In this document: piece after piece, positions 36,905-48,523 of the stretch | How the letters are laid out: each line of letters begins with the position of its first letter | How positions within the stretch are numbered: the first letter of the stretch is position 1 | DNA from: a virus | Direction: 5' to 3' (one strand) | IMG/VR virus record: IMGVR_UViG_3300005288_000003 | Location: 33,841 to 97,840 of that record | DNA length: 64,000 nt | The notes under the pieces: model-generated | Databases searched by the model: none | What the model was told of the DNA's origin: nothing | Seen by the model: only the letters and a program-made list of their open reading frames with translations | Program-made: the position numbers and the translations under genes

Positions 36905-38698
36905 ATGAAACCTTTTGCACCCCACATGGTTGACGTATACAAGATTGGTCATGCGGACATGTACACCGAAGGCACCGACTTCCTGTACAGCAACTTAACC
37001 CCGCGTTCTGACAAATACTTCCGTGCTTCTGGTGTCTCGAAGATGTACGACGGCAAGATGGTCGTCTTCGGTACTCAAGGCTCGATCATGGAAATCGCTG
37101 AAGACTGGAACGATTCGTTCTTCTCGCAACCAAAAGAGAAAGTGATTCGCCGCTACCGCCGCCGCGTCAATGGCGTGATCGGTGAAGGCAAAGTGTCTAC
37201 CGCTCGCATGGAAGCTCTGCACGACCTCGGCTACCTGCCGCTGGAAATCAAGACCATCGACGAAGGCGCTCGCATCGGGATGAAAGTTCCAATGCTGACC
37301 ATCAAGAATACCCTGCCTGAATTCTTCTGGCTGGTGAACTATCTGGAAACCGCTCTGTCCGATCAAATCTGGCAGCTCGCCACCAACGCGACTATCGCAT
37401 ACGAGTACAAACGTATTCTGATGGCAGCGGCTCTGCGTACTGGCGCTGCAACTGAAGGCGTGCTGTTCCAAGGTCACGACTTCTCGATGCGTGGCATGCC
37501 GGGTTACATCGCAGCTTCTCGTTCCGGTTCAGGTCACTTGGCCTCGTTCTCGGGTACTGACACTGTTGGTGCAATCGACTACATCGAAGACTATTACGGT
37601 GAAGGTCTGGATTTGGATGCCTACTTTATCGCTGGTTCGATCCCTGCAACTGAACACGCTGTTAGCTCTAGCAACATCCTGACTCGTGCTGCACGTCTGG
37701 AAGCTGCGTTCACTGGTGAGATGGGTGAAGAGTGCCGGGATCTGCGTCTGGAAGCTGAAACAGAGTTCCTGATTCACTACATCACCAAACTGAATCCGAA
37801 TGGCTTCTGCTCGTATGTAGCAGACACCTACGATTACTTCGGCGTACTGACAGAGGTGCTGCCACGGGCTTACCCTCAAATCATGGCACGTGATGGCCGA
37901 CTGGTGATCCGTCCTGACTCGGGTGATCCGCTGAGCATCATCTGCGGCACCATTGACAAGGTTTATGCGACACTGGGTGAAGCTCTCGACGAAGAGCGTG
38001 ACTCTCACTTCGAACGGGCTGCTGAAGACTGCGAAGGCTCGTATAATATGGGTGCAGACTACTACGAGACTCTGGTGTACATCACTGAAGAATCAAAGTA
38101 TTACAACATCAAGACTAAGTTCGAGTACAACCGTCACGACAAGCAATACTACTACATCGACAACTACAGTTCCGATTGTGGTGAGCCTGTTGCGACAGAA
38201 GTACAACCTTCGGCTGAAATGAAAGGCTCGATCCAACTACTGTGGGAAACCTTCGGCGGTACTGTGAACGAAGCTGGCTTCAAAGAACTGGACTCGCATA
38301 TCGGTCTGATCTATGGTGACTCGATCACTCTGTCACGTGCCCAAGCGATCACTGACCGTCTGGAAAAGCTGGGCTTTGCATCGACCAACGTTGTGTTCGG
38401 GATCGGTAGCTACACCTACCAGTGCAACACTCGTGATACCTTCGGTACTGCGATGAAAGCGACTGCCACTGCTATCAATGGTGAGCTGTTCGAGATTTAC
38501 AAAGATCCGGCGACCGGCGACAAACTGAAGCAATCTGCACGGGGGCTGTTGCGTGTTGATCTGATCGATGGCGAATACGTTCTCCGCGATCAAGTGTCTG
38601 CCGAAGAAGAGCATGGCGGTGAGCTGAAAGTTCGCTTCCGTGATGGCCACTTCTTCAACGTCACGAACATTGACACCATCCGCCAACGTTTGGCATAA
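36905..38698 (+). CDS. NAMPT-like protein (Namat of NARP1)
   Basis: DVYKIGH, HDFSMRG, SIPATEH, RPDSGDP, LIYGDSI, GIGSYTYQ. Confidence 0.9.
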   Translation: MKPFAPHMVDVYKIGHADMYTEGTDFLYSNLTPRSDKYFRASGVSKMYDGKMVVFGTQGSIMEIAEDWNDSFFSQPKEKVIRRYRRRVNGVIGEGKVSTARMEALHDLGYLPLEIKTIDEGARIGMKVPMLTIKNTLPEFFWLVNYLETALSDQIWQLATNATIAYEYKRILMAAALRTGAATEGVLFQGHDFSMRGMPGYIAASRSGSGHLASFSGTDTVGAIDYIEDYYGEGLDLDAYFIAGSIPATEHAVSSSNILTRAARLEAAFTGEMGEECRDLRLEAETEFLIHYITKLNPNGFCSYVADTYDYFGVLTEVLPRAYPQIMARDGRLVIRPDSGDPLSIICGTIDKVYATLGEALDEERDSHFERAAEDCEGSYNMGADYYETLVYITEESKYYNIKTKFEYNRHDKQYYYIDNYSSDCGEPVATEVQPSAEMKGSIQLLWETFGGTVNEAGFKELDSHIGLIYGDSITLSRAQAITDRLEKLGFASTNVVFGIGSYTYQCNTRDTFGTAMKATATAINGELFEIYKDPATGDKLKQSARGLLRVDLIDGEYVLRDQVSAEEEHGGELKVRFRDGHFFNVTNIDTIRQRLA

Positions 38699-39460: not shown

Positions 39461-39811
39461 ATGAATCTGCAATCCATCCAAAAGCGTGTCGAAGAACTGT
39501 CAGCAGAGCTGATCACCATCAGCAACGATCTGTCCTTCCTGATTCAAGGCGATGTTCAACGCAATCCTGTAGAAGTCGAGCGTTTGCGTCACTTCTCCGA
39601 AGTCAAAGAGGGCGATAAGCTCCGCTTCGATGCCATCTTCAACGATATCTGCGGGCAACGCCACGATGCAGGAGAATACGAGGTATACGAAGTTGAAGAT
39701 GCAGGGTACGAAGGTTCCTATGATGTTGCACTTCGTCGAGGTGGCGGCCTCATGTGGCTGGACTTCTCGGACGTATCTTCTTCTGTCCGTGTAACCAAGG
39801 TGAGTGCATAA
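39461..39811 (+). CDS. Hypothetical protein (coiled coil plus SH3-like)
   Basis: AAGGAG RBS; VKEGDKLRF. Confidence 0.65.
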   Translation: MNLQSIQKRVEELSAELITISNDLSFLIQGDVQRNPVEVERLRHFSEVKEGDKLRFDAIFNDICGQRHDAGEYEVYEVEDAGYEGSYDVALRRGGGLMWLDFSDVSSSVRVTKVSA

Positions 39812-39812
39812 C

Positions 39813-40391
39813 ATGAAACTGTTGAAATTTGCTGGTCTGGCTGGCGCTCTAGCTTTCTCCACTATCTTCCTAACTGGTTGTGAACAGGAGAATCCAGAAG
39901 AAACAGCGAAGGACGAAGCGGACATCGACGCCAATACGCGTGCTGCAATGAACCAAGAAGAAGTGGAGCTGAAAGAAGAGCTTACAAAGGCTCAAGCCAA
40001 AGACCCTTCGATCAAGGATATGTACTACGGCACTGACGACGAAGGTAATAAGGTGGTTCACGTCATCCGTGAAGTGAAAGACCCTGCTACTGGTCAAGCA
40101 CAGGCACATGACACCACCGCTCCAATGCTGCAAGGTATGGTGCTGGGTATGCTGATGTCGAACATGATGAACGGTGGTATGGGTGGTGGCTACGCCACTC
40201 GCAGCTACCCAATGAGCGAAAGCCGTAACTACCGTAACCAAGCGACCAGCCGTTACAGTGGCTACACCCGTTCGATTCAGGCTCGCTCATATGTGTCCGC
40301 ACGTCCGGGTAGCGCCTACAGCACACGCTCCGCTGGTGCATTCTCCAGCAGCAACTCTGCCCGCTCTGGCGGTTACTCGGCAGGTGGTTAA
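39813..40391 (+). CDS. Lipoprotein, YgiB/DUF1190-like
   Basis: Lipobox LTGC; PMLQGMVLGMLMS; S/R/G-rich end RSGGYSAGG. Confidence 0.65.
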   Translation: MKLLKFAGLAGALAFSTIFLTGCEQENPEETAKDEADIDANTRAAMNQEEVELKEELTKAQAKDPSIKDMYYGTDDEGNKVVHVIREVKDPATGQAQAHDTTAPMLQGMVLGMLMSNMMNGGMGGGYATRSYPMSESRNYRNQATSRYSGYTRSIQARSYVSARPGSAYSTRSAGAFSSSNSARSGGYSAGG

Positions 40392-46969: not shown

Positions 46970-47187
46970 TGAAACATCCTGATATACGTGTGAACGGATA
47001 CCCTGTTGTCATGTCGTTGATGATGGTGACAGAACCGGGAGAGGGTTGGAAGGGCAGCACCTTCATTGGAGAATATCGCTGCACCAAAGACTTGAACGCT
47101 GCAATTGCGGAACACAAAGACAATGTACCAATCGGGTGGATGTTAGAAGTTGACTTTCAGGATGACATCGACTACCCTCTCTCCTGA
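46969..47187 (+). CDS. Hypothetical protein
   Basis: GGAG RBS; MKHPDI. Confidence 0.6.
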   Translation: MKHPDIRVNGYPVVMSLMMVTEPGEGWKGSTFIGEYRCTKDLNAAIAEHKDNVPIGWMLEVDFQDDIDYPLS

Positions 47188-47215: not shown

Positions 47216-47242
47216 AGCCTCCTTCATTGGGGGCTTTCTTTT
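47216..47242 (+). terminator. Terminator ending the + strand block
   Basis: AGCCTCC/GGGGGCT hairpin + TTCTTTT. Confidence 0.7.
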
Positions 47243-47411
47243 GTCTGGTTAAAAAGTAACCACTGGCGTTTAGCTAGCCACCAAGGCCATTCCTCCCCAA
47301 ACCCAGTTTTACATTTCAGGTACTCTCCTAAATCCTAATCGGATTTATATTTTAGGGACTTAACAAAAGCTAAGCACCCCTATAGCTGGCCGCCGTAATT
47401 TGAAAATAAGT

Positions 47412-47427
47412 TGGCACGCATCCTGCA
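47412..47427 (+). promoter_or_regulatory. sigma54 -24/-12 motif
   Basis: TGGCACGCATCCTGCA (GG-N10-GC). Confidence 0.6.
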
Positions 47428-47454
47428 TAAATCATCACTCATTCGCTAGTGGTT

Positions 47455-47470
47455 CGTTCCACGTGGAACA
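47455..47470. promoter_or_regulatory. parS: parS site
   Basis: CGTTCCACGTGGAACA; one mismatch to TGTTCCACGTGGAACA. Confidence 0.75.
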
Positions 47471-47669
47471 TAGCCCGCCCGGTGATGCCTTCGGCGTCAA
47501 ACCTTCTGCCCTTTGCACACATACAAACACTTATAACAAAAGGGGTATATAAGAACTGATATTGTGGTCGCACTATATATAGAGAGCTGTACACCTCGGA
47601 TAGCTCGCACTCTGAGGGACATACACACCACACTACGGTAGCACACCATAGGACATTGCACACACAACA

Positions 47670-47765
47670 TGGCACACTGTGTGCATCACTACACATGGCA
47701 TGCCCTATGCATAGCGTTTCATTTATCGTGTGCGATATTGCGATTGACATGCATATTATGTGCCA
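47670..47765. promoter_or_regulatory. Three clustered sigma54 -24/-12 motifs
   Basis: TGGCACACTGTGTGCA (+47670), TGGCATGCCCTATGCA (+47696), TGGCACATAATATGCA (-47765..47750). Confidence 0.55.
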
Positions 47766-48208
47766 CTCACACACCACACCCCTCCATAGGCTACCCCTAT
47801 CACCCTGTTCGCATCGATTGGAATGTATTTCTTGACACGCCAGTGTAAGTGTGATCGTTTTGCTTAGACATCACGTGGTGCTGCCCAAGCTCCGGCGAGT
47901 GAGAAACCCATATAGCATGTTTTGAAGGGTTATTGACCTATGGCCAGCCATAGGGCGAGATTCACTGTAGGCCACGGCCTACGGGGCTCACAGAGCTTTA
48001 TAGAGGGTTATTTAGGGCTCCGCCCTGATGGTCATACTCTGTCGTCTTCGACAGGTTTTGAAACCCTTTTCAAATGGTATAACAATATATTTATTTATAT
48101 GTATCCCTTCTATAGAGGGTAATGCTTTCGCCTTCGGCTTGTGGTGCAAAACCTACAGCGGAGCTGTGAGGGTATACCCTTTCACCTTCGGTTAATGTGC
48201 AAGAATGC

Positions 48209-48233
48209 AAAAGCCCCGCACTAGCGGGGCTTT
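48209..48233. terminator. AAAAGCCCCGC/GCGGGGC terminator family (also ~51378, ~53001, ~57556)
   Basis: Same stem repeated after - strand genes. Confidence 0.75.
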
Positions 48234-48248
48234 GTTTCACGTGGAACA
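48233..48248. promoter_or_regulatory. parS: parS site
   Basis: TGTTTCACGTGGAACA; fits TGTTNCACGTGNAACA. Confidence 0.8.
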
Positions 48249-48250
48249 TT

Positions 48251-48523
48251 TCAAGGCAAACGCAAACCCTTGCCATCGGTGATGATGATTTGAGAGCCAA
48301 ACCCAACGACACAACCTGTCTCGCCTTGCGAGTGTGCTTTAAGGCATGTTTCGATTACAGACATGCTATCTGAGGTTGTTGGCACTTCTTGCCATTTGGT
48401 TGTAGTCCAGCCGAAAGAGGAGTGATAGAAACCCTCCTTCACAAACCATACGCCATCCTCACGACGAGCGTATTTATAGCCGTCATTGCCGATGCGAGTG
48501 AAAGCTAAGTTTGCCTTTGCCAT
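48251..48523 (-). CDS. Hypothetical protein
   Basis: GGAG RBS; own promoter and terminator. Confidence 0.7.
   Translation of the reverse strand: MAKANLAFTRIGNDGYKYARREDGVWFVKEGFYHSSFGWTTTKWQEVPTTSDSMSVIETCLKAHSQGETGCVVGFGSQIIITDGKGLRLP

Follow-up and report, generated by a model that had tools for sequence, protein, structure and literature searches.

Two 16-bp palindromes in a 64,000-nucleotide stretch of viral DNA (hereinafter the window) closely resemble parS, the chromosomal site at which host ParB loads. They raise the question of why a phage with no recognizable partition genes should carry, in duplicate, the segregation site of its host's chromosome, and whether, as the original prediction held, it does so to recruit the host's ParB. 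The answer depends on what kind of phage this is, on how closely the palindromes match the host site, on whether related phages have kept them, and on which protein could read them.

A virulent Otagovirus-like phage and its intergenic gap

The window comprises bases 33841-97840 of the 97,840-bp virus genome IMGVR_UViG_3300005288_000003, which is a complete Otagovirus-like myovirus. When the intergenic gap holding the palindromes is used as a blastn query, it matches only Pseudomonas phages with genomes of 93-102 kb (ventosus, UAVern, Bitten, vB_PF_Y1-MI and UNO-G1W1), of which UNO-G1W1 is classified as an Otagovirus. All the related phages have Pseudomonas hosts, from which we infer the same host genus for the window phage; to our knowledge, this genus forms no spores. 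Among the sequencing runs listed, the stretch was recovered only in Logan contigs of a soil metagenome, its likely source, and in no RNA run, and two scans of IMG/VR with conserved blocks of the gap gave no matches.

The phage had been predicted to be lytic and to have neither a parA nor a canonical parB in the window. The former is supported by the virulent group to which the phage belongs, and the latter holds for the entire genome. The annotation of Bitten is that of a typical virulent myovirus, with a DNA polymerase, a primase/helicase, a ribonucleotide reductase, a tRNA array, and sheath and baseplate genes, and with no integrase, repressor or partition gene. Likewise, phiPsa374, the type Otagovirus, is described as virulent, with neither lysogeny nor transduction detected (PMC9796965). 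Six-frame Pfam searches of the window's genome and its relatives, which covered integrases of the tyrosine type, found no tyrosine integrase. The same searches gave no match to ParB_N (PF02195), nothing above the cut-off for the ParB-type helix-turn-helix (PF17762) and no match to PF13614, the sole ParA-type profile used, so that neither the ParB (ParB_N plus helix-turn-helix) nor the ParA of a complete ParABS partition system was found; this absence of ParB comes with the caveat that a DndB-like gene, of a family that we take to belong to the ParB/Srx fold superfamily, lies 3 kb from the second palindrome.

The palindromes lie in a gap of about 1 kb that contains no credible genes and separates two converging gene blocks, the rightward one ending at 47187 and the leftward one at 48251 (Table 1). 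They bracket most of its length, and both are thus non-coding, as had been proposed.

Table 1. Features of the intergenic gap and its surroundings, numbered from the first base of the window
Feature	Position	Strand	Remarks
Terminator-like hairpin closing the rightward block	47216-47235	+	conserved in the six-phage gap alignment
Inferred direct terminal repeat (DTR)	47379-47850		by homology to the UNO-G1W1 repeat; holds site 1, excludes site 2
Conserved motif GCTGGCCGCCGTAATTTGAAAATAA at the inferred left terminus	47385-47409	+	3-4 mismatches in ventosus, UAVern and Bitten
Sigma-54-like -24/-12 element, TGGCAC-N5-CTGCA	47411-47427	+	about 30 bp upstream of site 1
parS-type site 1, CGTTCCACGTGGAACA	47455-47470		1 mismatch to TGTTCCACGTGGAACA, at the outermost position
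Conserved non-coding segment	47850-48232	+	between the inferred DTR and site 2; UUCG-type hairpins; ends at the two-way terminator
Two-way terminator hairpin, AAAGCCCCGC / GCGGGGCTTT	48210-48233		inverted repeat
parS-type site 2, TGTTTCACGTGGAACA (reverse complement TGTTCCACGTGAAACA)	48233-48248		1 mismatch to TGTTCCACGTGGAACA
Last leftward gene, 90 aa	48251-48523	-	homologous annotated CDS in UAVern (1036-1308) and ventosus (39690-39935); stop codon adjoins site 2
DndB-like (DGQHR) gene, stand-alone, 485 aa	51417-52874	-	PF14072, E 3.7e-31

Two palindromes of the Pseudomonas chromosomal type

In P. aeruginosa, parS2 and parS3 are the perfect palindrome TGTTCCACGTGGAACA; parS1 and parS4, with a single mismatch at the outermost position, rank next in affinity for ParB, an intact CACGTG core is important for binding, and any single one of parS1-4 is enough for segregation (PMC4368675). 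The parS of P. putida has the same sequence, and both GTTCCAC and GTTTCAC half-sites are occupied by P. aeruginosa ParB in ChIP-seq (PMC7022226). The two palindromes of the window differ from the host-genus site by one base each, and both keep the CACGTG core. Site 2 consists of a GTTTCAC half and a perfect half, and against the palindrome TGTTNCACGTGNAACA it has no mismatch where site 1 has one. Given the outermost mismatch of site 1 and the two halves of site 2, both are plausible high-affinity sites. A gap of 2 bp separates site 2 from the stop codon that closes the leftward block, and immediately next to the site is a two-way terminator hairpin.

No further site with up to three mismatches is present in the window or in the whole genome. 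At up to one mismatch, 0.0011 sites are expected per genome, and the probability of two or more is about 6e-7 (about 3e-7, by arithmetic, for the 64-kb window alone); shuffle tests looked weaker only because they allowed 2-3 mismatches. The half-sites GTTCCAC and GTTTCAC on their own are not enriched relative to a third-order Markov model. The description with which we began, of two sites of the host-chromosome type about 780 bp apart (778 bp, start to start) and very unlikely to have arisen by chance, is thus borne out in position, type and statistics.

The perfect 16-mer also turns up in more than 120 unclassified IMG/VR contigs among the matches listed, and in these it is not concentrated at contig ends. 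Host-type parS may be widespread in viral DNA, in a listing that pools prophage ends, plasmid-like elements and phages with a ParB of their own.

Conservation of the sites in related phages

Sites that are unconserved and neutral had been named beforehand as one outcome that would refute the idea, and the sites are conserved. In genome-wide pattern scans, with copies in terminal repeats counted once and a threshold of one mismatch, 17 of the 21 complete genomes of the clade, the window's included, carry between one and five sites, each of which is expected only about once per thousand genomes; scans with the reversed pattern found none in any record. Ep020 has five sites, ventosus and UAVern four each, and Bitten, Y1-MI and REC two each, with Bitten having an additional palindromic site at two mismatches. 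Two complete IMG/VR relatives have two and one, and phiPsa374, 397, 267, 347, 300, 315, PN09 and PPSC2 have a single site each. The four genomes without a site are UNO-G1W1, phiK7A1, phiPsa381 and VCM, and the P. aeruginosa phages PAK_P1 and PaP1, which are further removed, have none either. As the site-less relatives still form plaques, the sites are dispensable for plaque formation and their role is accessory.

The pattern of change within the sites matches that of sites bound by ParB. Among the first 28 sites (56 half-sites), variation is confined to half-site positions 1, 5 and 8, which are those at which known ParB sites vary; the one later exception is PPSC2, at position 3. Altogether, more than 30 sites in about 20 phages retain a specific sequence of 14-16 nt, beyond what mere pairing of the two arms would require.

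Position is conserved as well. In an alignment of the gap from six phages, ventosus, UAVern, Bitten and Y1-MI all have site 1 in the column where the window has it, and UNO-G1W1 has a degraded form. Compared with the window, the site shows an identity of 0.89, whereas the adjoining 40 bases reach 0.44 on one side and 0.39 on the other. This is conservation beyond the neutral expectation, and site 1 is kept even in IMG/VR relatives whose neighboring non-coding DNA is otherwise unalignable. Ventosus and UAVern also have the slot of site 2, at a distance of 1-3 bp from where the homologous CDS is annotated to end; the equivalent in Bitten lies behind a terminator one gene further on. UAVern and Bitten have another slot in common, just after the stop codon of an RNA ligase gene and between converging genes. 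All the sites of ventosus, of UAVern and of Ep020 are grouped no further than about 7 kb from the repeat. Non-coding DNA is scarce in these genomes, and a concentration of sites in the repeat region could partly mirror where a palindrome can be accommodated. On this evidence, the best reading is that the sites are maintained by selection in a clade of virulent Pseudomonas myoviruses (Otagovirus and its kin) that lacks partition genes.

A probable terminal repeat and other features of the gap

The most conserved slot appears to lie in the direct terminal repeat of the phage chromosome. The DTR of UNO-G1W1 was reported as 544 bp by a terminal-repeat assembly pipeline (PMC11256812), and its record has 551 identical bases at the two ends. 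This repeat aligns to about 47379-47850 of the window and starts at a motif conserved in all six phages, the motif aligning with the bases that open the UNO-G1W1 record. If the homology is followed, the left edge of the DTR is probably about 77 bp before site 1, and the right edge about 390 bp before site 2. Each virion DNA would then probably carry a parS near both ends, with site 2 falling probably about 0.85 kb from the left end.

The phiPsa374 group offers independent support, its repeats having been determined with PhageTerm and annotated in the records. In phiPsa374, 397, 267, 347, 300 and 315 the only parS lies inside the annotated DTR of 510-529 bp, so that one copy is present at each end of the virion DNA. 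The phiPsa315 site is kept exactly, despite different flanks and a DTR identity of only 75%. The record of phiPsa374 runs in the opposite orientation to the window, and its site is about 120 bp from the equivalent boundary. Two of the Ep020 sites and one IMG/VR site are likewise in DNA homologous to the phiPsa374 repeat. The phiPsa381 record (MT670421.1, 1-701) is without about 280 bp of this repeat region, the parS included, which represents either a natural deletion variant or a problem of assembly or annotation, and potentially a natural control.

Two other indications of termini were set aside. The 105-bp overlap between the ends of the window's genome (1-105 and 97736-97840) is an assembly overlap rather than a biological repeat and is far from the inferred DTR, and the start of the UAVern record was rejected as evidence for a terminus since that record has no terminal repeat.

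The gap has further conserved elements. A sigma-54-like element of the form TGGCAC or TGGCAT-N5-TTGC is aligned in five of the six phages, including the site-less UNO-G1W1, and its copy in the window may be a real promoter firing into the terminal repeat. In the conserved segment between the inferred DTR and site 2, 17 of the 59 predicted pairs stay paired after changes on both sides. A search of the gap against Rfam returned no family at threshold, and the segment is probably an undescribed non-coding RNA of these phages. An inverted repeat (CCCTATAGCTGGCC / GGCCAGCCATAGGG; 47378-47391 and 47942-47955, with 550 nt between the arms) has its first arm at the inferred left end of the terminal repeat and could be a recognition element for the terminase or a chance occurrence.

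Host ParB and other candidate readers of the sites

The only protein known to us that reads the 16-bp parS in a Pseudomonas cell is the host's own ParB. The host type of the sites, their departure from chance and their conservation, in a virulent group with no ParA or ParB of its own, make recruitment of the host ParB the most economical reading. We posit, with a probability of roughly 55%, that the palindromes are genuine parS of the chromosomal type, kept by selection as loading sites for host ParB. ParB would bind the phage DNA at these sites, close around it as a CTP clamp, and build a small complex of the partition type. The prediction that the phage recruits host ParB is thus partly supported: its premises hold, and the binding itself is predicted from the sequence.

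A reading with a lesser though still appreciable claim also has host ParB bind, with the sites serving as elements at the borders of transcription units: a roadblock, a silencer or a timer responding to copy number. Such elements would stop read-through into the terminal repeat and its non-coding RNA region; in relatives they would also keep expression of the DndB-like gene low. The placement of site 2 between a stop codon and a two-way terminator fits this well, as do the slot behind the RNA ligase gene in UAVern and Bitten and a parS that at least eight relatives have within, or immediately before, the leader of the DndB-like gene. This parS lies between a sigma-70-like promoter and the ribosome-binding site of that gene in ventosus, UAVern and five IMG/VR contigs, and immediately before the gene in Ep020. 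Moreover, the phage sites are almost all intergenic, in contrast to the P. aeruginosa chromosome, where nine of ten sites are reported within coding sequence (PMC4368675), and P. aeruginosa ParB silences genes adjoining parS (PMC4368675, PMC7022226). Yet the most conserved slot, the one in the repeat, is at no obvious gene border, the DndB-like gene of the window has no site in its own leader, and ordinary terminators already stand at the borders concerned.

The same leaders give some appeal to a reader encoded by the phage, either the DndB-like protein or an unrecognized helix-turn-helix protein, acting in place of host ParB; on balance, we regard this as unlikely. The DndB of the dnd system is described as an autoregulator, and the gene is close to site 2. 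The protein belongs to a large family, with more than 1,200 relatives in the protein collection and full-length homologs of 43-67% identity in many bacterial phyla, and it has no sequence match in the PDB. However, Bitten, Y1-MI and the phiPsa374 group have parS and no DndB-like gene, and 80 bacterial and five distant viral DndB-like loci (about 21-67% identity) show no parS within 2.5 kb, which indicates that parS is not an operator of the DndB-like family. These two observations led us to reject the DndB-like protein as an obligate reader. As for a helix-turn-helix protein, none of the ParB type, and no ParB_N domain, was found in these phages, and for a DNA-binding domain of another kind to recognize precisely the host's 16-bp site, convergence would have been required. 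A simpler reading of the parS in the DndB-like leader of the relatives is that host ParB acts on the gene there.

Slightly less likely still is a takeover of the host by titration, in which the parS of replicating phage DNA drains ParB from the host origin and disturbs chromosome organization or division. Replicated phage genomes, at 2-3 sites apiece, would in a burst supply far more sites than the four near the host origin, and both lack and excess of ParB cause segregation defects in P. aeruginosa (PMC4368675). Against this, parB is non-essential in Pseudomonas, with only mild phenotypes upon its loss (PMC7022226), which leaves titration poorly motivated, and the conserved positions of the sites are left unexplained.

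It is improbable that the palindromes are RNA or DNA hairpins, or a packaging signal in the repeat, with an incidental likeness to parS. Perfect palindromes can fold, site 2 would be transcribed just ahead of a terminator hairpin, and one site is in the repeat, where the terminase must act; but the retained sequence is more than pairing would demand, sites occur outside the repeat too, and phages without a site still package their DNA. Chance, or a neutral scrap of host DNA, has nothing in its favor but the shortness of the sites and can be dismissed in view of the statistics given above, the recurrence at homologous positions amid diverged flanks in 17 of 21 genomes, and the fact that the flanks of the sites in the gap are phage sequence.

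What host ParB might do on the phage genome

If host ParB does bind, several purposes can be considered. Those named in the original prediction, namely recruitment of SMC, disguise of the DNA as chromosome and titration of ParB, are conjectural. The foremost, though still tentative, is that the phage chromosome is hitched to the host ParABS system, to be positioned and inherited when lysis is deferred, a use suggested by the precedent of Spo0J and the Bacillus phage phi29 (see below). A roadblock or silencer at the borders of transcription units would come second, at a clearly lower level of expectation, followed by a tethering or condensing of the two repeat-bearing ends or of genome copies, which we consider rather less probable, and then by the draining of ParB from the host origin, which is doubtful; the remainder falls to other uses.

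The presence of a site in each copy of the repeat leads to the idea that bridging by ParB joins the two ends. A speculative form of this proposal is that ParB on the parS of the terminal repeat draws together the ends of the linear chromosome, or else every phage copy, in a single complex that is itself linked to the host's partition apparatus. ParB-CTP clamps slide off free DNA ends, so that a site 77 bp from the terminus may load poorly before the ends are joined. Were such gathering to occur, a borrowed centromere would join or protect the ends of a virulent Gram-negative phage and carry it through divisions when lysis is deferred.

Comparison with known systems

The closest parallel is phi29, which has five parS sites of the host Spo0J, the latter taking part in carrying the phage genome into the forespore (Meijer et al. 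2005, as described in PMC2731898). Both are lytic phages with no ParB of their own that carry several copies of the host parS; the window phage belongs to a virulent group in which, like phi29, no lysogeny functions were found. A host partition protein handles the phage genome in phi29, for which ParB binding has been shown, and would do so in ours. They differ in that the host of phi29 sporulates, with entrapment in the spore as the benefit, as opposed to a Pseudomonas host that forms no spores. Furthermore, phi29 is a 19-kb podovirus with protein-primed replication, as against a 98-kb myovirus with a DTR that holds the most conserved site. The concept itself being known from phi29, the new elements here are the Gram-negative non-sporulating host, the conservation across a clade and the location in the DTR. 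Our literature searches found no report of parS in lytic phages of Pseudomonas.

With parS1-4 of the Pseudomonas chromosome, the phage sites share the 16-bp palindrome, and their mismatches are of types that ParB is known to bind, at the outermost position or as a GTTTCAC half-site. In contrast to the chromosomal sites, which are near oriC, mostly in genes and linked to a parAB operon, they are on a virus, almost always intergenic and without such an operon. The parABS of P1 and the sopABC of N15 are likewise centromere-like sites on phage genomes, but these phages are temperate and have their own ParA, ParB and centromere sequences, whereas the present phage has no such genes and copies the site of its host. 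KorB-OB of RK2 and Noc-NBS resemble the phage sites as sets of several parS-like palindromes in intergenic DNA with a possible regulatory effect. In those systems the element encodes the reader and its sites differ from the host parS, while here no DNA-binding protein of the ParB family was found alongside the sites, the DndB-like gene of the ParB/Srx fold being the only related one.

Implications

If host ParB loads on these sites, a strictly lytic family of Gram-negative phages would be exploiting host chromosome segregation, which is documented only for phi29, in sporulation. Current work is asking how "virulent" phages persist as carrier states or pseudolysogens (PMC12768965; bioRxiv 10.1101/2024.12.31.630880), a question to which such loading would be pertinent, as it would be to the behavior of the ParB-CTP clamp on linear DNA with free ends. 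Since these phages are candidates for biocontrol, a hidden mechanism of persistence would be of practical relevance. The system is amenable to experiment: the phiPsa374 family is in culture with its repeats mapped, phiPsa381, UNO-G1W1 and VCM offer site-less counterparts, and the host parB is non-essential.

A nicotinamide phosphoribosyltransferase gene in the window

Apart from the gap, the window encodes on its forward strand (36905-38698) a nicotinamide phosphoribosyltransferase with 48% identity to that of P. aeruginosa Pakpunaviruses. The homologous gene of Bitten is near one for ribose-phosphate pyrophosphokinase, and the proximity of the two suggests an NAD-salvage module of the phage.
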